Of a stretch of 64,000 bases of DNA, positions 25,492-55,803 are shown piece after piece. A program made the translations under genes and the position numbers. Below the pieces are notes generated by a model. That model was not told the origin of the DNA and did no database searches. It was given only the letters and a program-made list of their open reading frames with translations. Source of the DNA: an uncultured bacterium (GTDB taxonomy: Bacteria; Krumholzibacteriota; Krumholzibacteriia; WVZY01; JAKEHA01); assembly GCA_965371015.1 (NCBI GenBank), contig CBDUWU010000001.1, forward strand, positions 1,368 through 65,367, read 5' to 3'. Each line of letters starts with the position of its first letter. Positions within the stretch are counted from its first letter, which is position 1.

Positions 25492-25499
25492 GGTGAAGC

Positions 25500-28241: not shown

Positions 28242-28247
28242 CCGGAA

Positions 28248-30149: not shown

Positions 30150-30239
30150 GGCCGGTTGTGGTCCGTGCCGCCTCCGGAGAGTGATTTATTTTCTTGTCTT
30201 ACCGGCTGTGTCTACATATCCTGAAACATCCTCTGACGA

Positions 30240-30260
30240 CGCGGGAATACCGCGGGAATA
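30240..30260 (+). repeat. tandem direct repeat CGCGGGAATA(c)CGCGGGAATA upstream of the phosphotransferase fusion gene
   Basis: two 10-bp units spaced by 1 nt, 26 nt upstream of the GTG start at 30286. Confidence 0.5.
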
Positions 30261-30285
30261 TTAATGAAACCGAGGGACTGACGAC

Positions 30286-33123
30286 GTGACCGCACTGGTT
30301 TGCTTTCTGATCGCTTTCGGAGTGTCGTATCTGGGCACCCTCGGGCTGCTGCGCATCCCCATGGTGAGGGGCTTTATCGACGTTCCCAACGAGCGAAGTT
30401 CGCACGAGGCGCCCAAATCCAGGATCGGCGGCGTTGCCATCGTGGTCTCGTTCTACGCGGCGCTCGTGTGGTTGTGGGTGTCACAACCGGAGACTCGGGT
30501 ATTTATGCCGCTGGCCGTCGGGTCCGCGATGCTGTTTCTCACCGGCCTGATCGATGACTGGCGCGGGCTCGGCGTAAAAATCAAGTTTGCCATGCAGATC
30601 GTCGCGGCGATTACGGTAGTGTCGTTCGGGGTCTCGATCGACCACATATACATACCGGCCGCCGGGAGCGTGGAACTGGGCTGGACCGGTATTCCGATCA
30701 CCGTTCTGTTCATCGTCGGAAGCATTAACTTCTACAACTTCATAGACGGTATCGACGGGCTGGCCGCGGGCAGCGCGTTTATCGCGGCGGGGTTTCTGGC
30801 GCTGATCTCCATGACGCTGGGGCACTCGGCACTCGCGCTGGTACTTGTCGCGGCAGCCGGCAGTTCCATCGGCTTTTTACAGTTCAATTTTCCCCCGTCA
30901 AAATTGTTCATGGGTGACAGCGGAAGCACATTTCTCGGCTTCTTTTTTGCGTATACCGCCGTCGCGGCCAACGGGCTGACGCCCGAGCTTCCGGTGTTCA
31001 TTCCGGTTCTGATCCTGTCGTCGCTCTACCTCGACGCGGGGTTGACCCTGTTCAACCGCCTGATCAAGCGTGAAAACATATTCAAAGCGCACCATACTCA
31101 CTATTACCAGAGGCTCCTCTCGCTCGGGTTGAATCACAAACAGGTCACGCTGCTCGAGTACCTGGTGCTCATCCTTCTTGGTGTAAGCGCTGTCGTTTAC
31201 TTCAAGGCGGGCGAGTATTTTCCCGTGTTTATAAGCGCGTGCTGGATCACGCTTTTTACGCTGGCCATTTTGAAGATCCGTGGCCTGGAACGCGGCGACA
31301 AGCTGTTCTGGGAAAAGCGCACTTTGTTCGTCATCGGCCTCGATCTGGTACTGATCACGGTGGCGTACCTGGGTGCGTATTTCATGAGGATGAATTTCCG
31401 CTTCACCGATCCGGAAGGCACGGCGGTTCTGCGCGCGCTTCCGATCGTGCTGATCGTTCGAAGCGCCGTGTTCCACAAACTGGGCTTGTACCGGAGCGTG
31501 TACAAGTACACGAGCACGGCGGACATCGTGCGAATACTCAAGGCGGTCACGATGGGGTCGGCCATCATTCTGACCACCGTTGTCCTGCTCTACCGTTTTG
31601 TCTCGTTTCCGAGAACGCTGTTCATAATCGAATTTTTTCTGCTGACGCTGCTCATCCTCGGGTCGAGATTCTCTTTCCGCCTGTTCCACGAGATCGGCAA
31701 GGAAGCGCACGGCGCCAACGTGAAGCGATACGGGATTGTCGGCGCTGGAGACTTCGGAGAACGGGTCGCGCGCGAGCTGCGTAACGACAGCACCCGGACG
31801 ACAGTGGTGTCCTGTTTTATCGACGACGCCCCGGGCAAGATCGGGATGACGCTGCACGGAGCGCCGATCGTGGGGCCGGTCGACACCCTGGAGGCGATCG
31901 TGGCGAAGTACAAACTGGACGCGATCGTCGTGGGAATCGCCCGTCTCGACCAATACAGGATGGAACAGATTGCCGGGGCTGCCCGGGCCGCGGGGGTGGC
32001 GCTGGAGGGCCGTCAGAGCTCGTTGAAAAAGGATCCCGTTCGACCGGACGAGTTGTTCGAGAAGCTCGCACACGGGATCGGAAGGACCCGCGCCTGCGAC
32101 GTGGGGACGCCGTCCCGCGTATTTTATCGCGGCAAACGTGTGCTGCTCACCGGCGGCGGCGGACCATCCGGCCCGGCGTTAGCCCGCAAGCTGTCTGAAC
32201 TCGGCGCGGTGGTAACCGTGCAGACCGATTCGCCTCACGACGCCAGCAGATTCAACGCGGACCTGCGGAAGGACGTGTTCGTCCACATGGGACCGCCGGT
32301 GGGACCCGAAGGCTGGAAGAGCCTCTTCGACTCCGCCCGGCCCGACGTGGTGTTCTACTGCCTTGCCCTCGAAGTGCCGGCCGACTCGTACTCGGAGTCC
32401 TTCCTGTGGCACGCTTCGGTTTCGACGACGGTGGACCTGATGTCCGCCGTTGCCGGCTCGAGCGTATCTTCACTCGTGATGGTTTCGAATCGTGGAGCTG
32501 GGGCGCAACGAACCGCCGCGGATGCGGCTGCGGTCGCCGAAGCCATATTGCTCAACGGTGTGCTCCCGGACACTGTCGTACCACAGGTGATCCGATTGCC
32601 CCGGGTACTGGATTCGGGCGATCTCCTCGACGTGTTCAACGCGTGGTCGGGCGCAGCGCCGGGCCCAGACACCGGATACGACGTGCTCGAGCCCGAAGCA
32701 GTGGCGGTCGTGCTTGACACCGCGGCTTCCGGCCCGGGTCGCGTCATTGTCGTGCCCCAGTGGAGCGGTTCGTTTTCGGCGGTGGACGCGGAATCGATCC
32801 TCAACGGCAGGCCGGGCCCCGGAAGGACGGATCAATGGGATCGCATCGATCGCAACGCAGGCCCGTTGTATCCGGCTGAAGCCATCGCGGGGCCCCCGAC
32901 ACCGGGTGCGATACGATCGGTCGCCGGGGTCGCCGTCGTGACCCCCCTCTGTCCCGCCGATGAAACCGTCGCGGCCGCCCTGGCCAGCGACCCGCCCGAC
33001 GCCACCGGGGACGAGCGGATCAGGTGGATGGAAGCGGCGACTGCGTCGCTGTATCGTGACTCGGCCTCCGGCGCTGATACCGCCCCTGAGGCGGACTCCA
33101 CCCGCGAGAAGGAGCGGTTGTGA
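30286..33123 (+). CDS. fusion protein: polyprenyl-phosphate sugar-1-phosphate transferase (WecA/MraY GT4 family) + CapD/WbpM-like membrane/Rossmann region with degenerate SDR domain + Ala/Pro-rich C-terminal tail
   Basis: aa 1-330 carry the MraY/WecA motifs DDWRGL, NFIDGIDGLA, MGDSGSTFLGF; aa 340-470 have four more TM helices followed by YGIVGAGDFGERVAREL, as in CapD/PglF; aa 560-760 contain VLLTGGGGPSGPALARKL but no clear Y-x3-K catalytic motif. Confidence 0.75.
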   Translation: MTALVCFLIAFGVSYLGTLGLLRIPMVRGFIDVPNERSSHEAPKSRIGGVAIVVSFYAALVWLWVSQPETRVFMPLAVGSAMLFLTGLIDDWRGLGVKIKFAMQIVAAITVVSFGVSIDHIYIPAAGSVELGWTGIPITVLFIVGSINFYNFIDGIDGLAAGSAFIAAGFLALISMTLGHSALALVLVAAAGSSIGFLQFNFPPSKLFMGDSGSTFLGFFFAYTAVAANGLTPELPVFIPVLILSSLYLDAGLTLFNRLIKRENIFKAHHTHYYQRLLSLGLNHKQVTLLEYLVLILLGVSAVVYFKAGEYFPVFISACWITLFTLAILKIRGLERGDKLFWEKRTLFVIGLDLVLITVAYLGAYFMRMNFRFTDPEGTAVLRALPIVLIVRSAVFHKLGLYRSVYKYTSTADIVRILKAVTMGSAIILTTVVLLYRFVSFPRTLFIIEFFLLTLLILGSRFSFRLFHEIGKEAHGANVKRYGIVGAGDFGERVARELRNDSTRTTVVSCFIDDAPGKIGMTLHGAPIVGPVDTLEAIVAKYKLDAIVVGIARLDQYRMEQIAGAARAAGVALEGRQSSLKKDPVRPDELFEKLAHGIGRTRACDVGTPSRVFYRGKRVLLTGGGGPSGPALARKLSELGAVVTVQTDSPHDASRFNADLRKDVFVHMGPPVGPEGWKSLFDSARPDVVFYCLALEVPADSYSESFLWHASVSTTVDLMSAVAGSSVSSLVMVSNRGAGAQRTAADAAAVAEAILLNGVLPDTVVPQVIRLPRVLDSGDLLDVFNAWSGAAPGPDTGYDVLEPEAVAVVLDTAASGPGRVIVVPQWSGSFSAVDAESILNGRPGPGRTDQWDRIDRNAGPLYPAEAIAGPPTPGAIRSVAGVAVVTPLCPADETVAAALASDPPDATGDERIRWMEAATASLYRDSASGADTAPEADSTREKERL

Positions 33124-41357: not shown

Positions 41358-42557
41358 ATGAAACGACCTGTGCTATGGATTTGCGTTGTTCTTCTGGCGG
41401 GAGCTCTCGTCGAGGGGTGCGGCGGCTCGGACGAATCATACGTTGACAACGAAGACGCGCTTGCCGCGAAGGTGGAGGATTGGACGCTGACCAAAGAGTT
41501 TCTGTACGATTTCATCGAGCAATTGCCCGATGCGCAGAAAGTCAAGTATGATACGCCGCAGGGCCGGGCGTCGCTCACCGACCAGCTCATGGGGGAAGAA
41601 TTGTTCTACCGCGAAGCTCTGAACGGCGACTACGAGAATAAGGAAGAAGTCAATAAGCAGATCGAGGAAGTGACACGCCGGATACTCATCCAGGCCTATT
41701 ATCGCGAAGTGGTCGAGAACCGGGCGCGGCCGACCGAAGAAGAAATGGTCGAATGGTACGATTCCCACAGGGACGTTTATACGGCGCTGCCGGTGATCAA
41801 AGCGCAGCACATATTCTCGAAGAACAAGGAAAAACTCGAAGAACTCAAAATCCGGATACTGGAGGGTGGCGAGAAAATGACAACGCTGGCCCACAAGTAC
41901 TCGGAAGACAAGCTGACCCAGCCCGATGGCGGAGACCTGGGTTATTTCAACCCGGGTGGCTACATCCGCGGGGTGGGATTCTCGGACGAGTTCAGCGACG
42001 CGGTGGCCGAGATGGAGCCCCGCACCTTGTACGGACCCATCAAGTGGGGAAAAGGGTATTCGCTCGTTCGCGTCAACGAGAAGCGCGTCGCCGAAGCCAA
42101 ACCGTTTCCCGAGGTCCGGCAGGAAATATCGGACCAGTTGATGCGCCAGAAGATCGAACGGGTGAAAACAGAAGTAGTGCGTGAAATTCGCGAAAACTAC
42201 GACTGGCGCAACTACATGGACGAGTACTTCCGCTCGATCCAGAGGTCACCCGCGGAGCTGTTCCAATACGCCCAGACCACCGAAGACTCGTGGGAACGAC
42301 TGAGGGCTTTCGAGGAAATTCTTGAGAAGTTTCCCGAGTCCGAGCACGCGCCCCAGGCGATGTTCATGATCGGTTTCGTCTATCTGGAGGAACTGCAGGA
42401 CAAAGTCTCGGCGGAACGTTCATTCGCAAGGCTGCTCGCCCGCTATCCCGACAGCGACGTCGCCGATTCCGCCCGGTGGATGGTCGATAACATGGACAAG
42501 CCGATGCCCGATTTCGAGAGCATCGAGGAACTCAACGAGAAGCTGTCGGACGGCTAG
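41358..42557 (+). CDS. parvulin-type peptidyl-prolyl isomerase lipoprotein (SurA/PrsA-like) with C-terminal TPR-like segment
   Basis: signal peptide with Cys (LVEGCGG); rotamase motif GGDLGYFNPGG; GGAGG RBS. Confidence 0.7.
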   Translation: MKRPVLWICVVLLAGALVEGCGGSDESYVDNEDALAAKVEDWTLTKEFLYDFIEQLPDAQKVKYDTPQGRASLTDQLMGEELFYREALNGDYENKEEVNKQIEEVTRRILIQAYYREVVENRARPTEEEMVEWYDSHRDVYTALPVIKAQHIFSKNKEKLEELKIRILEGGEKMTTLAHKYSEDKLTQPDGGDLGYFNPGGYIRGVGFSDEFSDAVAEMEPRTLYGPIKWGKGYSLVRVNEKRVAEAKPFPEVRQEISDQLMRQKIERVKTEVVREIRENYDWRNYMDEYFRSIQRSPAELFQYAQTTEDSWERLRAFEEILEKFPESEHAPQAMFMIGFVYLEELQDKVSAERSFARLLARYPDSDVADSARWMVDNMDKPMPDFESIEELNEKLSDG

Positions 42558-42592: not shown

Positions 42593-43087
42593 ATGGCGAA
42601 TGCCGGATCGGATTTCGTAAGAGTTTCCATCGGCGGGCTGGTCAAAGACCAGCGCGACAATCCGGTGGTTCTTCTGCGGCGGGAAGACGGAGACGAAGTG
42701 CTTCCGATCTGGATCGGTCAGTCGGAAGCGCTTGCCATCGAACTCCAGTTGCGGGGAGAAGTTTTTGAAAGACCTTTGACCCACGATCTGCTGAAGACGT
42801 CGGTCGAGAGTCTGGGGGCGTCGGTGGTCAAGGTCGCCATCACGGAGTTGAAGGACAATACTTTTTTTGCCAAACTCTATCTCCAGCGGGACAACGAGAT
42901 ATACGCCATCGACGCGCGCCCCAGTGACTCGATCGCCCTCGCCCTGAAGGCGAGCGCCGACATATACGTTGCCCGTGACGTGTTCAAAAACCACAATCGT
43001 CTCATGCAGAGAGATCAGCTGCCCAGCGACAGTCCGGATGAAGCACTGAGAAAGTACTTACGCGACCTGGATCCGGGCGATTTTTAA
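42593..43087 (+). CDS. bifunctional nuclease (BFN/DUF151) domain protein
   Basis: VLPIWIGQSEALAIELQLRGEVFERPLTHDLL typical BFN core; 164 aa. Confidence 0.6.
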   Translation: MANAGSDFVRVSIGGLVKDQRDNPVVLLRREDGDEVLPIWIGQSEALAIELQLRGEVFERPLTHDLLKTSVESLGASVVKVAITELKDNTFFAKLYLQRDNEIYAIDARPSDSIALALKASADIYVARDVFKNHNRLMQRDQLPSDSPDEALRKYLRDLDPGDF

Positions 43088-43102
43088 CCCCTGGTTCTCA
43101 AG

Positions 43103-44902
43103 ATGAAATCAACGATCCGCCTTCTTGTTCCGGTCATCGCGGCGGTCCTCGTCGCTCTTCTCTTCGGCGCATGTTCGACGGCGAACAAGAGCGCCGCTAC
43201 CCTCGATGAAGAATCCCGTACCCATGCGGCCAACCTGTTCGCCCGGGTGAAGACCGAGAAGGCGGCGGGGAACCTCGACGCGGCGGCGGCTTCCGCGCAG
43301 GAGCTGATAAACAACTACCCGGGGTTCGCCCGTGCGGACGAAGCGATCTATCTGGCCGGGGAGGTCGCATTTGAGGGTGGACAGTACGACCAGGCGGCCT
43401 CTTACTTCGACGCGGTCGCCGAAAAATACCCGCTGAGTGCATACCGGGCGCCATCGGACCTGTCGGCCGCCCGCGCGTACGCGCGTCTGGAGATGTACGC
43501 CAGGAGCGCGGAGATTCTGGTTCGTCTTCTCGATTCTCCAATCGATGAGGAAATGCGCGCGGCCGCTGAAACGGAATTAGCGGAACTGGTCGCGCGACGG
43601 TTGAGCCCGACGGAAATGGAAGCGCTCGCGAAAAACTACCCCTCTTCGCCGGTCAACCGCGATATTGCCGTGTCGCTCGCCAGATTCGAATACGCCAACG
43701 CCAATTACGATGCCGCGTACGATCTGCTCGCGGAGTTCCTCTACCGGTTTCCCGAGCAGACTGATGTGGCCGAGGCGAGGCGCCTGCTCAAACTCGCCGC
43801 GGAGAAGAGGCAACCGCCCGCCGGCGTGGAAGACGGTGCCGGCCCCCCCCCCGGAATCGTCGAGCCGAACACGATCGGCGCGATTCTGCCGGTGACGGGA
43901 CCGGGACAGATGTCTCTGTTTGCCCGGTATTTCGGTGACGGGTGCCGAAAGGCCGTCGATGAATTCAACGAAACGAGCAGCCGCAAGGTCTCGCTGGTAA
44001 CGGCGGACACGAAGGGATCCGCCGTTGGGGCGGTCAAGTCGGTCAGAAAGCTCGTCCTCGAGGACGGGGCTATCGCCCTCATCGGCGCGGTATTCACCAT
44101 GCCTACCATCACGGCGGCTATCGAGGCCAACGCATGGCAGGTGCCGATGCTCTCGCCGCTCGTCTCGACGGACGACCTGCTCGAGATTGGACCGTGGATC
44201 TTCGAGACAAAAGTGCCCCGTGCGGTCGAGGTGTCGGCCGTTGCCGATCTGGCAGTTTCGCGGTTGCTGTTCGAGAGGATCGCCGTTGTATCGCCCGACG
44301 CCGGACGCTACCGCGACGCCGCCGACCTGTTCGCCGACGAGGTGGTTCGTCTCGGTGCCGAGGTGATTGAGCGCACGCATTACGAGAGCGGAGCAACCGA
44401 CTTCCGCGAACAGCTCGAGGCGGTACGCGACGCTGCCCCCGACGCGATTTTCATCAGCGGAGATTATAAGGAGCTGCTCAATTTGTTGCCGCAGGTCAAG
44501 TTCTACGATCTGCAGGTACAGCTGCTCGGGCTGAGCAACTGGAACAACGATAACTTGCTGAGGCTGTTCAGGGGAGAGCTGGAAGGGGCGTTGTTCCCTC
44601 TGGAAACTTACCGTGGCAAAGACCCGGAGGTGTACGACCGCCTGAAGATGTCGCTCGGGAAAGAAGAAAAAAGCGAGGTCAACTCCGTGATAGTCGCTGG
44701 TTATTTCGGTATGCGTCTGCTGCTCGAATCACTCGGAGCCGGTGCGTCCGATCGCGGAGAGGTCCGCGAGTATCTCGACGGCGTGCTCAGCCAGAAGGCC
44801 GAAAATCGCATGGCCGAGGCTGCAGCGCTCACGATACTCACCGTCCGGTCGGGGAAGGCGGTGGAGTTCACGCCTCCCCCGCGTCCCGGGACCGATTTTT
44901 GA
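43103..44902 (+). CDS. lipoprotein with N-terminal TPR region and C-terminal periplasmic-binding-protein type I (LivJ-like) domain; LpoA-like architecture
   Basis: lipobox LLFGACS; TPR-like helical N-half; C-half IGAILPVTGPG...LIGAVFTMP resembles type I PBP fold; matches domain order of PBP1A activator LpoA. Confidence 0.55.
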   Translation: MKSTIRLLVPVIAAVLVALLFGACSTANKSAATLDEESRTHAANLFARVKTEKAAGNLDAAAASAQELINNYPGFARADEAIYLAGEVAFEGGQYDQAASYFDAVAEKYPLSAYRAPSDLSAARAYARLEMYARSAEILVRLLDSPIDEEMRAAAETELAELVARRLSPTEMEALAKNYPSSPVNRDIAVSLARFEYANANYDAAYDLLAEFLYRFPEQTDVAEARRLLKLAAEKRQPPAGVEDGAGPPPGIVEPNTIGAILPVTGPGQMSLFARYFGDGCRKAVDEFNETSSRKVSLVTADTKGSAVGAVKSVRKLVLEDGAIALIGAVFTMPTITAAIEANAWQVPMLSPLVSTDDLLEIGPWIFETKVPRAVEVSAVADLAVSRLLFERIAVVSPDAGRYRDAADLFADEVVRLGAEVIERTHYESGATDFREQLEAVRDAAPDAIFISGDYKELLNLLPQVKFYDLQVQLLGLSNWNNDNLLRLFRGELEGALFPLETYRGKDPEVYDRLKMSLGKEEKSEVNSVIVAGYFGMRLLLESLGAGASDRGEVREYLDGVLSQKAENRMAEAAALTILTVRSGKAVEFTPPPRPGTDF

Positions 44903-44904
44903 TC

Positions 44905-45630
44905 TCACTGGTATATCCGGAACTTGATCAGAAATTTGATCCACATCGATATCGGCTCGTCTCCCCTTCTGGGAGGCTGAAAGACGAACTGCTTCACGGC
45001 TTCGATAGACGATTTCTCAAAACTCTTCGGACCGATAGACGACAGCACCGCCGCCATTTCCACGCGTCCGCGTTCATTCACGAACAATTCTACCGTGACG
45101 CTTCCCTCGGTTCCATTGGTCAATTCGTAGATCGGATACTCGGGCTGGACCATTTTCAGAAGTATGTAAGACTCTGAGTAGGGGACATCGCGATTGCTGG
45201 GGCGCGTTGTGACGTTCAGCAGGTCGTCGAACGAAATTTCCGGCATTTCGGTTTCGTCCGGAGATGGGTCGTTGAGCAGGTTGGGCTTGTCGAAATCAGG
45301 CCCCTCGACGATGTCGAGGTCCAGGCTGGTCAGCAATTTCAGTTTATGCTGGTTTTCGATCGCCGTGAACGGGTCGTCGTCGGGCATGATGGAGATCTCG
45401 GAGAGGAGTTGCATTTCGCCCTTGAACCCGACGTGCTTCTCCAGTTCATCGACGGAAACCTGGTCGGATGTGACGAACAGGAATGCGACGACCATGAACG
45501 CGAGGGGAACGATTCGCAGCAGACGCTTGTGGTAGGCACGGTCGCGTGCCCACACGCGCCGGTTTTCCGGTACGCCGCTCATAACCATAAAATAGTCAAG
45601 AAGTTGGGTGAGGTCAACCCGGCTGAACAA
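44905..45630 (-). CDS. TonB C-terminal domain protein
   Basis: single N-terminal TM, Pro/Asp/Glu-rich linker, C-terminal VQPEYPIYELTNGTEGSVTVELFVNERGRVEMAAVLSSIGPKSFEKSSIEAVKQFVFQP matches TonB_C. Confidence 0.6.
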   Translation of the reverse strand: MFSRVDLTQLLDYFMVMSGVPENRRVWARDRAYHKRLLRIVPLAFMVVAFLFVTSDQVSVDELEKHVGFKGEMQLLSEISIMPDDDPFTAIENQHKLKLLTSLDLDIVEGPDFDKPNLLNDPSPDETEMPEISFDDLLNVTTRPSNRDVPYSESYILLKMVQPEYPIYELTNGTEGSVTVELFVNERGRVEMAAVLSSIGPKSFEKSSIEAVKQFVFQPPRRGDEPISMWIKFLIKFRIYQ

Positions 45631-45697
45631 TGACTTCGGTCTCGGTGCTCATCGCCGTGGCGCGCCGGTTTCCGGATACGTCTCCCGCCGTCTCGCG

Positions 45698-48046
45698 TCA
45701 CCGGTGCGTTTCGTCCCCGGTGCCGGCGTCGAAGCGGACGGCGGCCCGCTCGCCCGGCGACAGCTGTATAACGTCCCCGAACGAACGCCCCGATTTGACG
45801 GCGTGGAGACGGTACTCGCCGGGGGCGAGTTTGCCGAAGCGGACCATACCCCGGGGGCCGGTCACGAGCGTCCAGGTCCCGTCGATTGTCACCCGCCAGC
45901 CCGCCGCGTCGTCGGCGTGGATTTCGACGGCGACCTCGCCCGAATCGGACACCTCGTAGTGGTCGAGGACGCCGGTAAAGACCGCGTACGCCTGATCGCG
46001 CTGATACCACGATTCGGCCAGCCTCAACTCCTCTTCCACCGTGCCGATCGAGGGCGGCGCGACAACGATCGCCGGGCACGCCGTCTGCTGGAGCGGATAG
46101 GTCACGGTATCGAACGGGCCCCGCGGCGGGACGTCGAGGCGGGAGGACATCGCGGCGAGCACGCTGGCCGCCATTCGTGACCCCGTGGAACTCCCGGGAA
46201 AGTAATACGTCGTGGCCACCAGCGGACTGTCCACCGGCGCCGTCCGGTGGCGGATTTCGATGTAGCGATTGGCGCCGAACCCGTTGGTCATGCGGGCGAT
46301 GTCTTCCGGCGTTCGCACCTCGTCGTTCGTCCGTGTGAGCTTGACCGCGGCCCCGGCGGACCTCAGGTATCCGGCCAGGTAGCGCGCCACCTGGAGGTTG
46401 GCGTGGGCGCCGGACAGGCCCAGCTTCCCGATTCCCGTCGTGGAGGCCTTTCCGCCCTCGGGATCGAGTACGAATCTCAGCCCGGTGAGGGCGCCCCCGA
46501 ACCACGGGATCAGGTCGACCGTGTCGGGTGGAGAGTCGCCCGCGACGAAGAGAGGGATGTATCCCGGCGCTTCGATCGAAAGGAACGATTCGGCCGAATC
46601 GGCGGTCCCGGCGTTCGACGGGTCTTTGCGCCGGTAGATGAACTCGCCCGCTTGTGAGACGTTCGTTCCGGTCCCGCCGTCGCGCCGGATGACGGCAACG
46701 GTCACCGGTTGTCCCGTCACCGCGTTCCGCACAATCCCCGCCCGGGTTTCCGGGCCGGATTCGGATTCGCGGGTGAGAGAGTGCGCGAACGATTTTCCGC
46801 GGCACTCGACACGGATGGTGGCCGCGTCGCCGCCGGGTTCGGTATGGACGATCACGTCGATCGATCCGGCCGCCACCACCGTCTCGACGGTATCCGCCGC
46901 CGCGACGATACGTACCCCGGTACCGTCCGCTACGGGCAGTCCCCGGCGGTCGAGCAGCCGGACCCTCGCCCGCACGGCGCCGGCGCCGGCGGGAGCCATG
47001 GGCGGCTGGACGTCGAAAGCGGCAAATTCGGGTTCGAAATCGATCGCAAATCGCGTGGAGAGCAGGGGGCTCGTGTTGCCGCCGGTGTTCCTCGCCGAAA
47101 CGGTCGCCTCATACGCACCGTTGGGGAGGTCCCACGGCGGGTTCCAGGCCGCCCGCTGTGCCAGCAGGTCGACGCGGGGCAGAACGGGGCGTCCATTGAG
47201 CGTCATGGTGATGCCGTCGGGATCGATACCGGCGCCCCCGTCGTCTTCGAGCGAATACACGAGTTCGGGCACTGTCTCGTGGAGCGAGTCGACCGGCGAC
47301 AGGCAAGTTACACGGGGAATCCCGCGGCCGAAATACTCGAGGAGGCCGAGGAAGTAGGCTTCGGCCTCCAGTTTCTGTGCCTCCGAGAGCTTGATTTTTT
47401 CTTCCACCCCCGGGTTGGTCAGGTAGCTGGATTCGCCCAGCACGGCGGGCGCGCCGGATTCGCGCAGGATCAGGTAATTGCCCTGCCGGACGATGCCGTT
47501 CTCGATGCCGAGATTCCGCATGAGGTGGCGGTGGACGGCGAACGCCAGATCCAGCGATGCCGGGTCGCCGGCCCGGTAGTAAGTTTCAACCGAGTTCTTC
47601 GCCGGATCTCTCTTTGGCTGGGCGTTGTGGTGGATCGAAATGAGTACGTCGGGGCGGATCGAATCCGCCATCGCCACGCGGGTCCGGAGGTCCGAAGCGA
47701 GCGACGAATCCTCTTCGGTGAGAAAGTCGCGGTCGACCGAACGGGTCATGAAGGCGTCGGCGCCGGCCTCCCGGAGCAGGCCCCACAGGTAGAGCGATAC
47801 ACCGAGGTTGACGCTCGCTTCTTCGAGGCCGTCGCGCCCGACGGTGCCCCGGAAATGCCCCCCGTGACCGGCGTCGATGAGAATCCGGCGGCCCTTCAGC
47901 GCTGAGGGATCGATTCGTGGGAGCGGTTCCGACAGACCGCGGTATAATCGGTCGATGGAATACTGCTTCGGGGGCGCCCCGCACGAGGCGGCGATGCCGG
48001 CCAGAACGGCCAGGAGCGCTAGCGGGATTTGAAGGCGTTGTTTCAT
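45698..48046 (-). CDS. lipoprotein N-acetylmuramoyl-L-alanine amidase with two Amidase_3-like domains, the second apparently degenerate
   Basis: lipobox LAGIAASCG; first domain RILIDAGHGGHFRG...LISIHHNA...YYRAG; second domain (aa ~515-700) LRFVLDPEGGKAST...YIEIRHR with Zn-ligand His positions replaced. Confidence 0.75.
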   Translation of the reverse strand: MKQRLQIPLALLAVLAGIAASCGAPPKQYSIDRLYRGLSEPLPRIDPSALKGRRILIDAGHGGHFRGTVGRDGLEEASVNLGVSLYLWGLLREAGADAFMTRSVDRDFLTEEDSSLASDLRTRVAMADSIRPDVLISIHHNAQPKRDPAKNSVETYYRAGDPASLDLAFAVHRHLMRNLGIENGIVRQGNYLILRESGAPAVLGESSYLTNPGVEEKIKLSEAQKLEAEAYFLGLLEYFGRGIPRVTCLSPVDSLHETVPELVYSLEDDGGAGIDPDGITMTLNGRPVLPRVDLLAQRAAWNPPWDLPNGAYEATVSARNTGGNTSPLLSTRFAIDFEPEFAAFDVQPPMAPAGAGAVRARVRLLDRRGLPVADGTGVRIVAAADTVETVVAAGSIDVIVHTEPGGDAATIRVECRGKSFAHSLTRESESGPETRAGIVRNAVTGQPVTVAVIRRDGGTGTNVSQAGEFIYRRKDPSNAGTADSAESFLSIEAPGYIPLFVAGDSPPDTVDLIPWFGGALTGLRFVLDPEGGKASTTGIGKLGLSGAHANLQVARYLAGYLRSAGAAVKLTRTNDEVRTPEDIARMTNGFGANRYIEIRHRTAPVDSPLVATTYYFPGSSTGSRMAASVLAAMSSRLDVPPRGPFDTVTYPLQQTACPAIVVAPPSIGTVEEELRLAESWYQRDQAYAVFTGVLDHYEVSDSGEVAVEIHADDAAGWRVTIDGTWTLVTGPRGMVRFGKLAPGEYRLHAVKSGRSFGDVIQLSPGERAAVRFDAGTGDETHR

Positions 48047-48130
48047 TACCCCTGCGATAGCAGAAATCGTCGGGTCCATCAAGGACTTTGGCCGGGAAGC
48101 GGGGCACCAAAAGGTTGGAATTAATAACGA

Positions 48131-48167
48131 TTGACGGTCAAAACAGGGCTGTGCTAGTTACTAGCAC
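48131..48167. promoter_or_regulatory. two perfect palindromes (TTGACgGTCAA and GTGCTAGTtACTAGCAC) in the amidase/selA divergent region; putative operator overlapping a promoter
   Basis: 11-bp palindrome at 48131-48141 (contains TTGACG -35-like hexamer) and 17-bp palindrome at 48151-48167 (contains extended -10-like TGcTAGTTA), 19 nt upstream of selA ATG. Confidence 0.4.
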
Positions 48168-48185
48168 GTCATCCGGACAGCAAAC

Positions 48186-49610
48186 ATGAGCGATAAAAAC
48201 AGCAAAGAGGCGCTGCGGGCGATTCCGCCCGTGGACGATATCCTGGCCGACGAGCGGCTCTCCGGTCCCAGGAAACAGCATCCGCGGTTTCCCTGGACCC
48301 GGCTGGTGAGGTCCGTCGTCACGGAGTATCGCGATCTGGGCAAGACGCCGACCGGTGTCGACCCCGCGTCCCGGGATTCTGTGCGGGACTGGGTCGTCAC
48401 TCGGGTGGGGCAGGCTTGCGGTGAACTGGAGCACGGGGGGCAGCGTCGCGTGATCAACGGGACCGGCGTGATCCTCCACACGAATCTGGGCCGCGCCGTT
48501 ATCGGCGCTGGTGCGCGCCGGGCCGTCGATGAAGCGCTTGCGCACTATATGAGCCTCGAGGTGGACCTCGAGAGCGGGCGGCGCAGCGAGCGGGCAACTA
48601 CGTTGAACCGCCTCGCGGCGCTGGCGACGGGGGCCGAAGACGCAATGGTTGTGAACAACAACGCGGCCGCCGTCTATCTCGTGCTCGGAGCGTTTTCTCC
48701 CCCGGGGCGGGTCATCGTGTCGCGCGGAGAACTGGTGGAAATCGGCGGCAGCTTCCGTCTGCCGGAAATCCTCCGGCACGCTTCTTCGGAGGTCATCGAG
48801 GTCGGGACGACCAACCGCACCTACGCCGAGGACTACGAAAAAGTCGCGGTGGAGGGGGACGTCCTGCTCAAGGTCCACAAGAGCAACTATGCCATCGAAG
48901 GGTTCGTCAGCGAGGCGTCTCACGTGGACCTGGTACGCGTCGCGGCCGCCAGGAACTGCCGGCTTGTTTACGACCTGGGAAGCGGCGCGGTGTTCGATTA
49001 TCGCGGGGCCGGAATCGGTGGCGATGAACCTGTCGCCGGCATAGTAGATGCCGGCGTGGATTGTGTGACCATGAGCGGCGACAAGCTGCTCGGGGGAGTG
49101 CAGGCCGGCATTATCGCCGGCAAGAAGGAAGTCCTCGCGTCGGTTCGGAACAACCCGCTGCGCCGGGCGGTGCGGATCGACAAGGTCACCGTCGCGGCTC
49201 TCCAGGATGTCCTGAGACAGTATCTGTTCGGACCGGGACCGGAATCCGGAGTACCCGTACTCGGGCAGGTCCTTGCCGGCCTGGATGTGGTCCGGGAACG
49301 GGCACGCAAGGTGGCTGAGGCCGTGGTCCGGAATCTGGGCGCGGGCGGCGGTCCGGACGTTTCCGCCGTCGACGATGACGCGGCCGTGGGTGGGGGGAGC
49401 TGGAGCTCGGAGTCGGTCGCTTCGGCCGCCGTCTGCATACGCTGCGACGGCGAAAAGGAAGCGGTCCGGCTGGCGCGCCGCCTGAGGTTGAATGACCCGC
49501 CCGTCGTTCCGCGGGTCAGGGGCGCCGAAGTTCGCATTAATATGAGATCGGTGATGCCGTACGAGGATGGGGAGCTCGGTGACGTTCTCGCCTCTGTGCT
49601 GGCGTTGTAA
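48186..49610 (+). CDS. selA: L-seryl-tRNA(Sec) selenium transferase
   Basis: VINGTGVILHTNLGRA, VNNNAAAVYLVL, SRGELVEIGGSFRLPE, PLP-lysine motif SGDKLLGGVQAGII - close to E. coli SelA throughout. Confidence 0.85.
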   Translation: MSDKNSKEALRAIPPVDDILADERLSGPRKQHPRFPWTRLVRSVVTEYRDLGKTPTGVDPASRDSVRDWVVTRVGQACGELEHGGQRRVINGTGVILHTNLGRAVIGAGARRAVDEALAHYMSLEVDLESGRRSERATTLNRLAALATGAEDAMVVNNNAAAVYLVLGAFSPPGRVIVSRGELVEIGGSFRLPEILRHASSEVIEVGTTNRTYAEDYEKVAVEGDVLLKVHKSNYAIEGFVSEASHVDLVRVAAARNCRLVYDLGSGAVFDYRGAGIGGDEPVAGIVDAGVDCVTMSGDKLLGGVQAGIIAGKKEVLASVRNNPLRRAVRIDKVTVAALQDVLRQYLFGPGPESGVPVLGQVLAGLDVVRERARKVAEAVVRNLGAGGGPDVSAVDDDAAVGGGSWSSESVASAAVCIRCDGEKEAVRLARRLRLNDPPVVPRVRGAEVRINMRSVMPYEDGELGDVLASVLAL

Positions 49611-49616
49611 CCATGA

Positions 49617-51161
49617 TTGACCGTTAGATTCGAAAGACGAGTCATGGAAAAGATATCTTCTTATAATATAGCAGTTTCTGTTGATACCTTAAGGGAAGGC
49701 TTTAATTCCGGCCAACTGGTGCCCGCGCTGCACGGGCCGCTGCAGTCTCTGCTGCCGCGGGTAACGCGCGCCGCTGCCGAAGCGCCGGCGTCCGTCTACC
49801 TGTTCTCCGCGGGAGATGGCGCCGAGGTCCGGGATCTGTTCGGATTTGCGCTTGTCGCCGCGCTGTCGCAGCAGATCCCGACGGCGTTGCTCGTCGATTG
49901 CGGATTTCTGGCGGTCGGCCTCAGCGGAGTCGTGCCGCAGAAAGACGCGCTCGGATTCCTCGACCTCCTGCTCTACGGGAGTTCGCTCGGCGTTATCACC
50001 CAGAAAACGAACGGCGGTGTCCACGTGGTGGGGGCGGGGTCCTTTCCGGTAACCAAGAATATGCCGTTCGTACTCAACGCTTTTGAGGAGGCGTCGCGCC
50101 GTCTCGTGTCGCAGTGTCGCTGCGCGGTCTTCTGCGGCCCCCTGTATAACGACGAAGGAGCACTCCACCCGCTGATCGGAGCCGTCGACGTACCGATTAT
50201 GGTGAGACTCGCCGGAACCGGGGGCTCCATCGTCGATCCTATCGAAGAGCAGATCTCCTCGAAGTGGGACTCGGAGTTGCTCAGCGTAAGAGTCACGCCC
50301 CGCGATGCCGCCGCCGCGCCGCCGCCAGCAACCGTGGCTACCGGAGTGGTCGACGAGAAACCCGTCGTCCCTGCGACTCCGGCGGCCGCGCCTCCATCGC
50401 AACATGAATTCGAGGAGATAGTCCCGCCCGCGCCACCGAGACCCGCCCGGGTCGAGACACCGAAACCCGCCCCGGCCCGGACACCGAAACCCGCCCCGGC
50501 CGAGGTTGCCCCGGTCGCTGATGTCGAATTCGAAGAGGAATCAACCGCGTCGCAGTACAAAGAGAAGAAATACTCATCGTTGGTTCCAAAAATCGCAACT
50601 GCTGTTGTCGCAACGGTTGTAGTCGTTTTCCTCGTGTGGTGGTTCAATGAGGAACGGACCGGCGGAGGCGGATCGGAACCTCCGCAGACGACAGGCTCGT
50701 CCGCTGTTTCGGATGTGGATGACGCCGGAGCCGAAACACCGACGGTGGTGGTGGTGGACAGCACGGTGGTGGACAGCACGGTGGTGGACGGCACGGCGGC
50801 GGTTGCCGTTGCCGCGGACACGACGGCCGCGCAGCCGGAACCGGAGCCGACCGGCGCGGCCGGCGCGGTCTCTTCCGACGACATACTCGTGATGGATGAC
50901 CTCGAAAACAACTGGGGTGGACAATACCTCATCCACATCAGTTCGTTCCGCGATTCGGGGAAAGCCCGAACCGAGGTCGGACAATTGACGTCCCGCGGAT
51001 TTTCGGTGTTCATCGTGTACCTGAATCTTGGTGCCAAAGGTTCGTGGTACCGCGTTTACGCCGGTCCCGTAGCGACACGCGAGGACGCGCGAAACATGAA
51101 AAAACTTCTGGACGATACGCCGGGGGTGCGTTTTACTCGCATATCGCAAATCGCGAATTAG
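49617..51161 (+). CDS. SPOR-domain protein with N-terminal degenerate ParA/MinD-like domain, proline-rich repeat linker and TM segment
   Basis: C-terminal YLIHISSFRDSGKARTEVGQLTSRGFSVFIVYLNLGAKGSWYRVYAGPVATREDARNMKKLLDD is SPOR-like; N-domain resembles ParA/MinD fold but with SAGDGAEV in place of Walker A; TM ATAVVATVVVVFLVWWF; start codon uncertain (49617 or 49644). Confidence 0.6.
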   Translation: MTVRFERRVMEKISSYNIAVSVDTLREGFNSGQLVPALHGPLQSLLPRVTRAAAEAPASVYLFSAGDGAEVRDLFGFALVAALSQQIPTALLVDCGFLAVGLSGVVPQKDALGFLDLLLYGSSLGVITQKTNGGVHVVGAGSFPVTKNMPFVLNAFEEASRRLVSQCRCAVFCGPLYNDEGALHPLIGAVDVPIMVRLAGTGGSIVDPIEEQISSKWDSELLSVRVTPRDAAAAPPPATVATGVVDEKPVVPATPAAAPPSQHEFEEIVPPAPPRPARVETPKPAPARTPKPAPAEVAPVADVEFEEESTASQYKEKKYSSLVPKIATAVVATVVVVFLVWWFNEERTGGGGSEPPQTTGSSAVSDVDDAGAETPTVVVVDSTVVDSTVVDGTAAVAVAADTTAAQPEPEPTGAAGAVSSDDILVMDDLENNWGGQYLIHISSFRDSGKARTEVGQLTSRGFSVFIVYLNLGAKGSWYRVYAGPVATREDARNMKKLLDDTPGVRFTRISQIAN

Positions 51162-51260
51162 CCGTACGCCGTTCTTCGCATGCCCGCGCGGGTTTCCGGC
51201 GCGGGCGGCGTGGAAATACGCATAGCGGCGCCTTTCAGTGTTAGCCTGGAGGACCAGCAT

Positions 51261-54200
51261 TTGAATCTCCGCAAGCTACAGATATTCGGGTTCAAGTCTT
51301 TTATGTCCCGCCTGGAACTCGATTTTTCACCCGGGATCACAGCTATCCTCGGACCCAACGGGTGCGGCAAGTCGAACGTTGTCGACGCCATCCGCTGGGT
51401 GCTCGGCGAACAGCGCACCCGTCTGCTGCGTAATACCAAGATGGAAAACGTCCTGTTCAACGGCACGCGTCTCCGCAAGCCGCTGGGTATGGCCGAGGTC
51501 TACATGACGCTTTCCAACGAGGACCACGGTCTTTCGGTCGATTACGAGGAAGTGACGATCGGCCGCAAGTTGTACCGGAGCGGAGTCAGCGAATACACGC
51601 TGAACAACGAGCCCACCCGGCTCAAGACGATTAAAAACCTGCTTGTCGACACAGGGTTGGGCAACAACGCCTACGCGATCATCGAGCGCGATATGGTGGA
51701 CAAGGTTCTCAGCGAGAAGGAACAGGAAAAACGCAATCTGCTGGAAGAAGCCGCGGGTGTGATGCGGTACCGGATCCAGCGGGAAGAAGCTGAGCGCAAG
51801 ATCAAGTTGACCGAGCAGGACCTCCTCCGTCTCGGTGATATCATACAGGAACTCGACAAGGAGATCCGGTCGCTGAAATACCAGATGGCCAAGGCCCGCC
51901 GTTACGTACGGCTGAGGGACAAGTCCAACGAAATGGAAGCGGTACTCCTCAAGGCGACGCTTTACGACCTGCTCATACGCGAGGACGAACTGAACAAGGA
52001 ACGCGAGCGGCACGAGGGAATCCGCCTCGCCGACGACAACGAAATCTCCACGCGCGAAAACAGGCTGCAGGAAAGGCGGATTGAGTCATCGGAGCAGGAA
52101 CACTCGCTTCAGGGGCTGCGTGAGACCCGGTACAACGTCAGCAGTAACCTCCAGCAGCACGAGGAAAAGATCGCCGTTCACACGGAGAGGGTCAACAGCA
52201 GCCGCGGCCGGATTGTCGAGGATCGCGCCGAAATCGACCGGGCGCGCGAGAAGCTCCACAATCTGGCCAGCGACCTCGAACGCTACAACAACGAAGTGGG
52301 CGGGCGCGGAAACCGGCTCGAGACCCTTCGCGAGGAACTCTCAACGCAAGAGGAATCATTGCGCTCGGTGTCCAGGCGTCTCGACGAAGCCCGAAAGGAC
52401 TTGCGGGAGAAGAAACAACTGGCTCTGAATCTGGTCGAGGCGAAGGCCAGGGAGGAAGGGCTCGTCGAGCATCTCGAGTCGACGCTGACCGAGCTGGAGG
52501 GCAAACGCGAGTCGATCGAGAATCAAGTCTCGGACCTGTCGGAGGAAGAATCCCGAAGGGTATCGGAACTCGGCGAGGTGGAACACAGGTTCAACGAAGC
52601 CGGCCGGCAGCTCGACAGCAGGCGTGATGATTCGAGAAAATTCACCTCGGAGCTGGACCGCCTGGCGGAAGAAACTGCGTCCTGCGAGAAAGCGCTTTCC
52701 GAAGCAGTTCGCAACCAGACCAAACTACGCGAAAAAAAGGAATTCCTGGACAAAATCAAGCGGGAACACACCCGCTGGTCTGACGATACTCTGGGAGCGC
52801 ACGAAGGGTTGAGCGGAGTCCTCTCGGACTTCGTGCACGTGGACAAGGAATACCGCAAGTGTTTCGAAGCCTGTCTCGCGCCCGTGCTCAACGGCGTCGT
52901 GGCCCGCTCCCGCGAAGACGCCGTCGTGTGCATTCGTGAATTCGTCGCCGCCGACAGCGGTCGTGTCCAGATACTGATTTCCCTGTCGGATCCGGACGCC
53001 GCCCCCCCGGGGGGCGAGACGGTCAGCGGCGAGGGGATCGTCGGGCCCGCTTCGTCGCTCGCCAGGTTCGACAAAAGCATCGAAGCCTATATGCGTTCGT
53101 ATCTGTCCGGCGTGGTGGTGGTGGAGGACACCGACGCGGCGCTCGATGTGATCGAGAGCGGCCGGGTGGCGCGAGTCGTAACGCTCGACGGTGTGTTTTT
53201 CGACGGACCGGCGCGTATTATCGTCGCCGGCTCGGATGACGTGGAAACCACGCTTCTCGATTACGACGCCAAACTGACCGAACTCTCGGCGGGCCTCGAG
53301 CACCTCGAAGGCGCGGGGCGTGAGTTGGAGCAGCTGCGCGACTCCCTCGCCCGTGACCGCGAGAGAGTTCAACGGGATGTCGCCGAGGCGCGCACGACGA
53401 TCGCCGCGCAGGAGCAGGCGGTCGAGTCGTTGCGCGGTACGCGGCGCGACCGGGAGTTGGCCGTCGTTCGGGTCAAGGAAAAGATCACGTCGGCCGAATC
53501 CGCTCTGGCGGAAAACGGGGAATCGGTATCAGCCGTAAAAATCCGGCTGGAGGCCACGACGAATCGTCCGAACAGCGGTGCTGCCGCGAATGCGGGCGCC
53601 GGCGACGTGGATGACGTAGATGTGGCGCGGACCGAAGAACTGACCCTCGACCTCGAACGCGAAAAGGAATTGCTGGCCGAGTCGGTCGGAAGGCTGAAGC
53701 TCGAGAACGTCTCGGTGTCGGGAGAAGTGGACACGCTTCAGACCAAGATTCGCAACGCGGAAAAACTCGACGAGGAGCTCAAGCAGTTGATGCAGGCGCG
53801 GAAAGAAGACGAAACGCGGTGCCAGGAACAGATCACGGTGAGCGAAGAGGACGTTGCGAGTCTCCGGTCGGGCATTTCGGGCCTCCACGCGGAAAAAGAA
53901 ACGGTCGAGCGGGAGATCGAACAGATCAGCGAAGCCCACGAGGAAACCAAACGAGAGTGCGACGAACTGGAAAAAGAGCTTAAGCAGATGAAAGACCAGC
54001 GCGACGCCAAACGCGAGAACCTCGAACGAGTCAGCGTCGAGACGGCGTCGCTGGAAACCCGAGTCTCCGGTCTGCTGGAAAAAGCCGAGGAGAATTTCGA
54101 TCAGGACCTTCGGCCATACCTGAAGAACCGGGAGTTGTTCGACCCCTCAGAATGGGAAAACTTCAACCGCGAGGCGCTGTCGCAGCTCAAGGCCAAGGTC

Positions 54201-54878
54201 GAGAACTTTGGACCTGTCAACATGCTCGCTCTCGATGAATACAACGAGAAGAATGAACGGTTCGAGTTTCTCAGCAAGCAGAAGGCCGATCTGGAGGAAG
54301 CGAAGAACTCGCTCACCCTGGCGATCAGGAGAATCAACAAGGAAGCGCGCCGGTTGCTGCGGGAGACTTTCGAACAAGTCCGCCAGAATTTCAAGCAGAC
54401 GTTTCTCACTCTGTTCGACGGTGGTGAGGTCGACCTGTTGTTCGTAGATTCGGACGATCCGCTGGAAGCCAATATCAAAATCGTCGCCAACCCCAAGGGT
54501 AAAAAGCTCCACGATATCGCGAGCCTCTCGAGTGGCGAGCGCGCGCTGGTCGCGTTGTCGCTCCTCTTCGGGATCTATCTGGTCAAGCCGAGCCCCTTCT
54601 GCGTGTTCGACGAAGTCGACGCTCCGCTCGATGACGCGAACATCGCCCGTTTCGTCAGGCTGCTCAAGTCGTTTACGGATCGCACCCAGTTCATCGTAAT
54701 CACGCACAACAAGAAGACGATGGAAGCGGCGGACAACCTTTACGGCGTCACCATGGAAGAGCCGGGGATTTCCAAGCTGGTATCCATCCGCCTCGACGAG
54801 GCGGAACGGTTCCGGCACCACCGCACAGGGACGAATCAGTCGGACGACGCACCTTCGGCGGCGGCGCCGGCGGCCTGA
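51261..54878 (+). CDS. smc: chromosome segregation protein SMC (TTG start)
   Basis: N-terminal Walker A [21 protein letters not shown], long coiled-coils with central hinge, C-terminal [42 protein letters not shown] RBS 7 nt before TTG 51261. Confidence 0.9.
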   Translation: [1205 protein letters not shown]

Positions 54879-54918: not shown

Positions 54919-55803
54919 ATGTTCAACCTCAAGGAAAAGCTGCAAAAGACGAGAGAGAATTTCGTCAATCCTCTGAAAAGGATATTTCAACGCGGTGGGG
55001 AGCTGAGCGATGACGACGAGTACGAGCTCGAGGAGTTGCTGCTCAGCGCGGACATCGGGGTGGACGCGTGTGACCGTATCGTGGAAGTACTGCGCGAGAG
55101 CGGCCACGAAAGCGACTACCGCGAGTGTTTGCGTCGCGAATTTCTGGACCTGCTCGGTGACGGGGAAGACGCGCGCCGAGACAATGTGACGGGCACCCGC
55201 GCCATCGTGGTCATCGGCGTGAACGGTGTCGGCAAAACGACGAGTATCGCCAAGTTGGCCAACTTCTTCAAGGAACGTGGGGAGTCGGTGGTACTGGCGG
55301 CGTGCGACACCTTCCGGGCGGCGGCGGTGGACCAGCTGCGTGTCTGGGCCGACCGGGTGGGCGTCGACTTGATCCAGCACCAGGAAGGTGGTGACCCGGG
55401 CGCCGTCGCATTCGACGCGTGCAAAGCGGCGAAAGCCCGAGGGACGGATGTGGTCGTCATCGATACAGCGGGCCGCCTGCACACTCGCGTCAATCTGATG
55501 GAAGAACTGAAAAAGATCAAACGCGTCTGCGAAAAGGTGCTGGGCCCGGATTCGGTGGAAACCCTCCTCGTTCTCGACGCCAACCTGGGGCAGAACAGCC
55601 TCATCCAGGCGTCCGAGTTCACGAAAGCTCTGGGCACCGACGGCATCATACTCACAAAGCTGGACAGCACAGCCAAGGGCGGCATTGTCATTGCGATCAA
55701 GCAGTCCCTGGGAATTCCCGTGCGCTACATCGGGGTCGGTGAACAGATCGGCGACTTCGACTCCTTCTCCGCCGACACATTTGTCGAAGCCCTCCTCGGA
55801 TGA
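54919..55803 (+). CDS. ftsY: signal recognition particle receptor FtsY (NG-domain-only form)
   Basis: VIGVNGVGKTTSIAKLA, DTAGRL, TKLDSTAKGG SRP GTPase motifs; 294 aa. Confidence 0.9.
   Translation: MFNLKEKLQKTRENFVNPLKRIFQRGGELSDDDEYELEELLLSADIGVDACDRIVEVLRESGHESDYRECLRREFLDLLGDGEDARRDNVTGTRAIVVIGVNGVGKTTSIAKLANFFKERGESVVLAACDTFRAAAVDQLRVWADRVGVDLIQHQEGGDPGAVAFDACKAAKARGTDVVVIDTAGRLHTRVNLMEELKKIKRVCEKVLGPDSVETLLVLDANLGQNSLIQASEFTKALGTDGIILTKLDSTAKGGIVIAIKQSLGIPVRYIGVGEQIGDFDSFSADTFVEALLG

Follow-up and report, generated by a model that had tools for sequence, protein, structure and literature searches.

We analysed a 64,000-nucleotide stretch of contig CBDUWU010000001.1 (hereafter, the window) from an uncultured bacterium of the Krumholzibacteriota, and in particular a gene block that encodes a 599-aa lipoprotein, a TonB_C-like membrane protein, an amidase lipoprotein, and a SPOR-domain protein. 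We read this block as part of a conserved chromosomal backbone of candidate phyla of the Fibrobacteres-Chlorobi-Bacteroidetes (FCB) group, with three transcription units that each contain an envelope gene, and we give this joint reading a probability of about one half. The amidase combines one domain that is predicted to be catalytically complete with a second copy that appears catalytically dead, and its gene is paired with the TonB_C-like gene. The 599-aa protein is LpoA-like in architecture, and it does not belong to the LpoA family.

The domains were assigned by scanning the open reading frames (ORFs) of the window against Pfam with curated cut-offs and against NCBIfam. The genes of the block are as follows, with the cut-offs in brackets.

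41358-42557, + strand: PpiC-type rotamase lipoprotein with a C-terminal tetratricopeptide repeat (TPR) region; Rotamase 45.6 bits, TPR_6 29.9 bits, lipobox LVEGC
42593-43087, + strand: BFN-domain (DUF151) protein, 164 aa; BFN_dom 131.5 bits (27), E 1.5e-38
43103-44902, + strand: 599-aa lipoprotein; Peripla_BP_6 108.3 bits (31.7), TPR_6 37.5 bits (26.3)
44905-45630, − strand: TonB_C-like bitopic membrane protein, 241-aa ORF (about 220-241 aa); TonB_C 55.7 bits (24.6)
45698-48082, − strand: amidase lipoprotein, 794-aa ORF; Amidase_3 in two matched stretches, 168.8 bits (27)
48186-49610, + strand: SelA, L-seryl-tRNA(Sec) selenium transferase; SelA 370 bits, TIGR00474 432.6 bits (267.9)
49617-51161, + strand: SPOR-domain bitopic membrane protein, 514 aa; SPOR 43 bits (21)
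51180-54878, + strand: SMC, from the ORF list; SMC_N in relatives
54919-55803, + strand: FtsY, with an SRP54 domain; it closes the SelA-SPOR-SMC-FtsY run

Short intergenic gaps and opposite orientations in the ORF list set the three units. The first (+ strand) contains the genes for the PpiC-type rotamase, the BFN protein, and the 599-aa protein, separated by 36 and 16 bp. The second (− strand) contains the amidase gene and then the TonB_C-like gene, with a gap of 68 bp. The third (+ strand) contains the SelA, SPOR, SMC, and FtsY genes, with gaps of 6, 18, and 40 bp. The amidase unit is convergent with the first unit and divergent from the third. The 599-aa and TonB_C-like genes meet at 44900-44907, where their stop codons are 2 bp apart; there is no space for terminators between them, and therefore the convergent transcripts must overlap. 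Scanning for promoters and terminators yielded no more signals than in shuffled sequence and therefore does not define the operons. We do not read the region as a single dedicated cell-wall operon. The housekeeping backbone continues upstream in the window with Prs, L25, Pth, L9, and ManC, and downstream with FtsY, the riboflavin genes, and NusB. No gene for a penicillin-binding protein (PBP) was found among the window ORFs scanned.

A sequence-only reading of this DNA had described a cluster of peptidoglycan-remodelling and division-associated envelope proteins. Its BFN, TonB_C, double Amidase_3, SPOR, and TPR plus type-I fold calls are all reproduced at the positions listed here and lie above the Pfam cut-offs. 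The envelope assignment stands for the lipoproteins, the TonB_C-like protein, and the SPOR protein. It fails for the BFN protein, whose sequence has no signal peptide and which is probably cytoplasmic. The SelA gene, located between the amidase and SPOR genes and 6 bp upstream of the SPOR ORF, had been overlooked. The rotamase at the head of the PpiC-BFN-599-aa run is predicted to be a SurA/PpiD-like periplasmic chaperone.

To place the block among its relatives, one genome per GTDB species was scanned; 136 genomes contained a relative, and 80 loci were fetched. The loci come from Krumholzibacteriota, Latescibacterota, Eisenbacteria, and metagenome-assembled genomes labelled Chitinivibrionia/Fibrobacterota. 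The kept order is L9, ManC, PpiC, BFN, and the homologue of the 599-aa gene (TPR plus substrate-binding protein; TPR/SBP) on the + strand, the TonB_C-like and amidase genes on the opposite strand, and SelA, SPOR, and SMC again on the + strand. It holds down to about 30-35% amidase identity across the 80 species-level loci. SelA adjoins the amidase gene in 51 of 53 loci, SMC is present in 50, and SPOR was detected in 39. The TPR/SBP gene is within 10 kb of the amidase gene in 40 of the 50 loci with enough flanking sequence, and BFN lies downstream of the amidase gene in 41/50; PpiC precedes BFN in most of the related loci. Ribosomal, SelA, and SMC genes are conserved equally well; therefore, the synteny reflects a lineage backbone and is no specific sign that the wall genes cooperate. 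The slot between the rotamase and TPR/SBP genes is variable: it contains BFN in most lineages, a DUF2914 gene in L084/L085 (3840-4283), and BFN plus a hexapeptide transferase in L086 (6447-9001).

The amidase gene probably starts at about codon 12-13 of its ORF, giving a protein of about 782 aa. The N-terminal signal with a lipid-anchor cysteine (Cys34), invariant in the 27-member family alignment, fits a lipoprotein. In the AlphaFold2 (AF2) model (predicted local distance difference test score, pLDDT, 80; predicted template-modelling score, pTM, 0.60), an active Amidase_3 domain is followed by three beta-sandwiches, a pseudo-Amidase_3 domain, and a C-terminal beta-sandwich.

47327-47887, − strand: amidase domain 1, residues 66-252; catalytic set H73, E88, H151, and E217
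46511-47320, − strand: three beta-sandwich spacers, residues 255-524; two Ig-like and one CarboxypepD_reg-like, from AF2 secondary structure
45959-46477, − strand: amidase domain 2, pseudo-Amidase_3, residues 536-708; Amidase_3 56.7 bits, E 4e-15 when scanned alone
45728-45940, − strand: C-terminal CarboxypepD_reg-like beta-sandwich, residues 715-785; Pfam E 7e-4, below the cut-off; all-beta in AF2

The spacer assignment is accompanied by a weak Big_13 match in the window protein and by Big_13 and CarboxypepD_reg matches in its relatives. The four catalytic residues of domain 1 align with those of E. coli AmiC and are invariant in 27 close and 73 species-level near-full-length homologues, and nearly every one of the 73 also has the motifs DPGHGG, E, S[IL]HHN, and GE. 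Judged from these residues, domain 1 is catalytically complete. Foldseek and sequence comparisons gave the helix-less enzymes CwlV, Nostoc AmiC2, CwlD, and LytH as the closest solved structures. In the alignment, neither amidase domain contains the 42-residue insertion that forms the regulatory helix in E. coli AmiC. No AMIN domain was detected in the protein, which scores far below the cut-offs of the NCBIfam AmiA, AmiB, and AmiC models. Amidase_3 enzymes without the helix are reported to be active alone, and some are helped allosterically by partners such as GerS (PMC8496864). Domain 1 should be intrinsically competent, because it is catalytically complete and has no inhibitory helix. The sequence-only reading had suggested that the degenerate domain could act as a regulator in the manner of amidases activated by EnvC or NlpD. 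This analogy does not fit, because the autoinhibitory helix displaced by those activators is missing from the active domain.

The same reading had suspected the second domain of being catalytically dead, and this suspicion proved correct: all four catalytic positions are replaced. Relative to domain 1 and E. coli AmiC, the substitutions are GH to EG, E to G, H to R, and the catalytic E to A. The first zinc-binding histidine, in the GHGG motif, is found in domain 2 of none of the 73 species-level homologues. Its position mostly reads DP[EQA]GG, while the remaining catalytic positions drift between lineages. On these substitutions, we consider domain 2 catalytically dead, and since the first histidine is absent from all 73 homologues, it is an ancient pseudo-enzyme and not a recent loss. 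Several non-catalytic motifs are kept in the 27-member alignment, namely RYIEIRH, FPGS, and VTYPLQQTACPA; VT[YF][PA]LQQTA is also conserved, though it was also used as a search pattern.

Domain 2 could instead be a decaying duplicate without a function of its own. Such decay is consistent with the drift of the catalytic positions and with a mean pairwise identity of 0.38 for domain 2 against 0.61 for domain 1. However, domain 2 retains its full length, is recognised by Pfam on its own, and folds confidently in the AF2 model. It is kept in 73 species-level genomes of several candidate phyla at about 30% overall identity, together with its non-catalytic motifs. We regard decay as highly improbable. 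At matched domain-1 identity, domain 2 identity is 0.31 where the TonB_C-like gene is present and 0.26 where it is absent, a comparison over 9 loci that are not phylogenetically independent. CwlM and EnvC are precedents for a dead cell-wall hydrolase fold with a regulatory role (PMC4946905). We found nothing specific in the literature on degenerate Amidase_3 domains, and the literature searched contained no description of an active plus dead Amidase_3 fusion paired with a TonB_C-like protein.

The pairing of the amidase and TonB_C-like genes is the tightest linkage of the region. The TonB_C-like gene was detected downstream of the amidase gene in 30/50 loci by tblastn, and 46/57 loci had it when the ORF beside the amidase stop codon was searched iteratively. 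With two more loci contributed by tblastn, it follows the amidase gene in about 48 of 57. In L084, a distant lineage, the two genes share 4 bp; the TonB_C-like product has no Pfam hit on record and nevertheless matches the window protein at E 7e-8. The window protein has a hydrophobic N-terminal segment and a TonB_C domain at residues 162-239 (nt 44914-45147), and its PDB match is TonB2 (E 4e-5). As to a role as a TonB energy transducer, the TonB equivalog models score far below their cut-offs for this protein, and no ExbB or ExbD was seen among the window ORFs scanned.

The 599-aa lipoprotein starts with a signal-like stretch up to Cys24, a cysteine that all 26 family members share. It has two domains, joined in the AF2 model by a disordered linker of about 20 residues.

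43208-43807, + strand: TPR domain, residues 36-235; 12 helices in AF2
43871-44866, + strand: type-I periplasmic-binding-protein fold, residues 257-588; alpha/beta domain in AF2

With a pLDDT of 82.5 and a pTM of 0.55, the model leaves the interdomain orientation undefined. In a Foldseek search of the PDB, Liv-type binding proteins ranked first, on the C-terminal domain (3td9, E 3e-18; 2liv, TM-score 0.79). Among the Foldseek matches listed, only Haemophilus influenzae LpoA (5vbg, 5vat, and 5kcn) aligned across both domains, over 580-599 columns at E of about 1e-12. In hhalign comparisons with the family profile, E. coli LivJ reached a probability of 95% (E 3e-8) and E. coli LpoA one of 19%. 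An enterobacterial LpoA profile, which is shallow (67-100% identity), reached 72% (E 3.5e-5) over 78 columns. These columns run from the last helices through the linker to the first strand and are collinear across the domain junction. The LppC model (PF04348) was not matched by the 599-aa protein at E ≤ 0.1, and no NCBIfam LpoA match was found; 12 of its 26 relatives match LppC weakly (best 1.9e-10). In a family-profile search of PDB sequences, LpoA chains did not fall below an E of about 0.09, and in a nearest-family test the protein was not closer to LpoA than to other type-I binding-protein families. Its TPRs match the BamD and CpoB models below the curated cut-offs (BamD 53 bits vs 81).

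We reject an LpoA orthologue on the family-model and nearest-family tests. The proposal of an LpoA-like protein, made in the sequence-only reading, survives for the architecture (lipoprotein, TPR, type-I fold, and alignment with LpoA over both domains) and not for family membership; the parts are Liv-type and CpoB/BamD-type. We found nothing specific in the literature on LpoA-like proteins outside Gammaproteobacteria. The fuller form of that proposal is a coordinated E. coli-style machinery in which the 599-aa protein would activate a class A PBP from the outer membrane as LpoA does, the dead amidase domain would be a built-in activator resembling EnvC or NlpD, and the SPOR protein would read the amidase product. 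It draws on the alignment of LpoA over both domains, the collinear profile match across their junction, the weak LppC matches in the family, and a homologue that NCBI names 'penicillin-binding protein activator'. The proximity of the TPR/SBP and amidase genes in most loci and a distant context in which Ddl adjoins the TPR/SBP gene also favour it. However, the catalytic domain has no helix for EnvC or NlpD to target, the window contains no PBP gene, and the genes fall into separate units among which SelA and BFN are interspersed. We consider this machinery unlikely. As an integrated Gram-negative-style system it had been drawn solely from proximity, and that part of the earlier claim is not sustained.

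The protein is also not an ordinary Liv-type binding protein. The ligand residues of LivJ (Y18, S79, T102, Y150, Y202, and E226) were mapped by two independent, agreeing alignments. An intact pocket would have counted against the sequence-only reading, by its own criterion, and the pocket is not intact. The equivalent of E226, which holds the alpha-ammonium group in LivJ, is Ser in 25 of the 26 members of the subfamily. The equivalent of Y150 is E, R, or D, that of Y202 is S, D, or T, and that of T102 is variable across the family. Other residues of the cleft region, R275, F277, S351-P352, and W480, are invariant. No ABC permease or ATPase genes were found beside the gene in the window or in the L001, L084/L085, L086, and P0290 contig neighbourhoods. 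We reject an ordinary Liv binding protein on four grounds: its pocket is degenerate, it carries a TPR domain and a lipid anchor, and no transporter is encoded next to it. The naming of the homologues (P0001-P0071, P0203, P0272, and P0335) is inconsistent and has no experimental basis in this lineage; apart from the one 'activator', JGI and most NCBI entries read 'branched-chain amino acid transport/ABC transporter substrate-binding protein'. Annotation as an amino-acid transporter component is probably wrong in this subfamily.

A wider search of 1.84 billion representatives gave 2021 at E ≤ 1e-30. Among the best 150, the TPR module precedes the binding-protein module in 124, and the median length is 611 aa. 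W480 is present in 118 of these 150, and the E226 equivalent is D or E in 35; therefore, more distant members may still bind amino-acid-like ligands. These relatives bear on another explanation, which is that the 599-aa lipoprotein is unrelated to peptidoglycan. It would then be an orphan ligand sensor, or an accessory of outer-membrane protein biogenesis working with the SurA/PpiD-like chaperone, and the amidase would be a housekeeping cell-separation enzyme with extra domains that only decorate it for wall binding. PpiC and BFN are the most constant neighbours of the gene, even where the amidase is missing, and the BamD and CpoB matches, the often Liv-like pockets of the wider family, and the prevailing substrate-binding labels all point the same way. 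On the other hand, the pocket acid is replaced by Ser in nearly the whole subfamily, the gene adjoins neither transporter genes nor genes of the beta-barrel assembly machinery (BAM), and the TPR similarity is generic and under the curated cut-offs. This explanation seems to us rather unlikely, though it deserves more weight than the E. coli-style machinery.

In the third unit, SelA is the immediate upstream neighbour of the SPOR gene; an ARAGORN scan of the window gave no tRNA-Sec. In the SPOR protein, an N-terminal region (49617-50550; about 310 residues), presumably cytoplasmic, leads into a Pro-rich linker, one transmembrane segment, and the SPOR domain at residues 435-498 (nt 50919-51110). 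Its first 228 residues have no Pfam or NCBIfam match, and the full-length protein has no significant PDB match there. Its relatives contain 549-586 aa and likewise lie between SelA and SMC. With 20 bits against the FtsN model (cut-off 107) and 17 bits against the RlpA model (cut-off 201), it could be assigned to no named subfamily of the SPOR-domain division proteins, a group that includes FtsN, DedD, DamX, and RlpA. SPOR domains bind the denuded glycan produced by amidases.

From the domains, residue states, fold similarities, and conserved gene order observed here, we infer the following interactions and regulatory roles. The amidase and the TonB_C-like inner-membrane protein would be a real functional pair, with the TonB_C-like protein probably acting as the membrane-side partner. 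The three spacers would hold the distal pseudo-amidase domain, which keeps its fold and a conserved groove but should be unable to bind zinc normally. Without catalysis of its own, this dead domain may bind peptidoglycan or dock a partner and so position or gate the active domain. By general SPOR biology, the denuded glycan that amidases leave at the septum would be the ligand of the SPOR protein. The 599-aa lipoprotein is most likely a periplasmic scaffold or regulator whose cleft would accommodate a partner protein, a peptide-like ligand, or a muropeptide; it could possibly activate a class A PBP, and a role as a transport binding protein is unlikely. In a stronger version, the amidase and the co-transcribed TonB_C-like protein would form a trans-envelope peptidoglycan-cleavage module, with the pseudo-domain in a docking or regulatory role and energy possibly supplied as in TonB or TolA, and the TPR/SBP lipoprotein would be an independently evolved, LpoA-like regulator of a synthase at the outer membrane. 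We hold this version to be improbable. If it is true, it would mean outer-membrane control of wall growth outside Proteobacteria, made of different parts.

Several observations weigh against our joint reading of the region. In 9/50 loci, mostly of the Eisenbacteria type, the amidase gene is present without both the TPR/SBP and the TonB_C-like genes. Lineage L086 has neither the amidase nor the TonB_C-like gene, and there the TPR/SBP gene, beside PpiC and BFN, is followed directly by SelA. The synteny spans unrelated housekeeping genes (L9, ManC, BFN, SelA, SMC, and FtsY) and is weak evidence for functional coupling. The distant TPR/SBP relatives retain more Liv-like pocket residues and, as judged from those residues, may bind small ligands. 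Finally, the faster change of domain 2 relative to domain 1 is what relaxed constraint is expected to produce.

Other features of the window lie away from the block. One more lipoprotein is predicted there.

9756-10445: predicted lipoprotein, 229 aa, lipobox LLAC15

The sequence-only reading had suggested that this protein may be LpoB-like, and it has no match in Pfam (E ≤ 5), NCBIfam (E ≤ 5), or PDB sequences (E ≤ 10); the suggestion finds no support. The 287-aa ORF that overlaps it on the other strand is probably spurious. An ABC export cluster of the gliding or an auxiliary type is encoded at 2735-7550; it comprises an ABC ATPase, a DUF4340 protein, and a GldG-like protein of 882 aa in which an ABC-2 permease is fused to ABC_transp_aux/DUF7088. 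A polysaccharide export and biosynthesis block at 22893-33123 encodes a Wza-like Poly_export/SLBB protein, glycosyltransferases, an asparagine synthase, and a 945-aa fusion of Glycos_transf_4, CoA_binding_3, and epimerase domains; it is consistent with a diderm envelope and a surface polysaccharide. A tRNA cluster, Ser(GGA), Ser(CGA), and Ala(CGC), is located at 10975-11384, just upstream of dnaX (11645-13507).

To our knowledge, outer-membrane control of peptidoglycan synthesis or cleavage is known almost only from Proteobacteria, through LpoA/LpoB/LpoP, EnvC/NlpD, and Tol-Pal/CpoB. Our literature search gave nothing specific on the cell walls of Krumholzibacteriota or Latescibacterota. The present analysis offers two testable candidates from uncultured FCB-group phyla, namely the amidase with its dead copy and TonB_C-like neighbour and the widespread TPR plus Liv-type lipoprotein. 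Should either prove to regulate wall enzymes, it would illustrate the independent evolution of this kind of control out of other building blocks. Otherwise, the outcome is a corrected annotation and a well-defined pseudo-enzyme family.

LpoA (YraM/LppC, PF04348) is the PBP1A-activating outer-membrane lipoprotein of Gammaproteobacteria. LpoA and the 599-aa protein are both lipoproteins of about 600 aa with a helical TPR-type N-terminal domain, a short linker, and a type-I C-terminal domain without a transporter link (PMC4111904). However, the TPRs of LpoA are atypical, whereas those of the 599-aa protein are canonical and CpoB/BamD-like. E. coli lpoA is found in the context rsmI-lpoA-yraN-diaA, and the 599-aa gene belongs to another phylum and another context. 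With LivJ and LivK (Peripla_BP_6), the protein shares the family model and the fold; it differs in its 230-residue TPR domain, its lipid anchor, and the loss of the pocket residues. Trp480, a hallmark of its family, is absent from LivJ and LivK.

For the dead amidase domain, the nearest parallels are CwlM, an Amidase_3 homologue without zinc ligands, and the degenerate LytM proteins EnvC and NlpD, all of which are conserved dead hydrolase folds that imply a non-enzymatic role (PMC4946905). CwlM is cytoplasmic and regulates MurA, whereas the pseudo-domain in the window is exported and fused in cis to its active paralogue. EnvC and NlpD have a fold unlike Amidase_3, and their target is the inhibitory helix that the window amidase lacks. 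The AmiA, AmiB, and AmiC enzymes of E. coli share the Amidase_3 core and, presumably, the septal removal of stem peptides with the window amidase, which differs from them in having no regulatory helix and a lipoprotein signal in place of a Tat/Sec soluble export signal. Domain 1 has the fold, the zinc and catalytic residues, and the missing autoinhibitory helix in common with CwlV, CwlD, LytH, and AmiC2 (1jwq, 5emi, 7rag, and 7tj4). Compared with these enzymes, the window amidase is a lipoprotein with three spacers and a dead second Amidase_3 domain in the same chain. CwlD and LytH work with the partners GerS and ActH, respectively (PMC8496864), which is a precedent for a partner-dependent helix-less amidase, although the conserved neighbour of the window amidase is a TonB_C-like protein and not a GerS- or ActH-like one.

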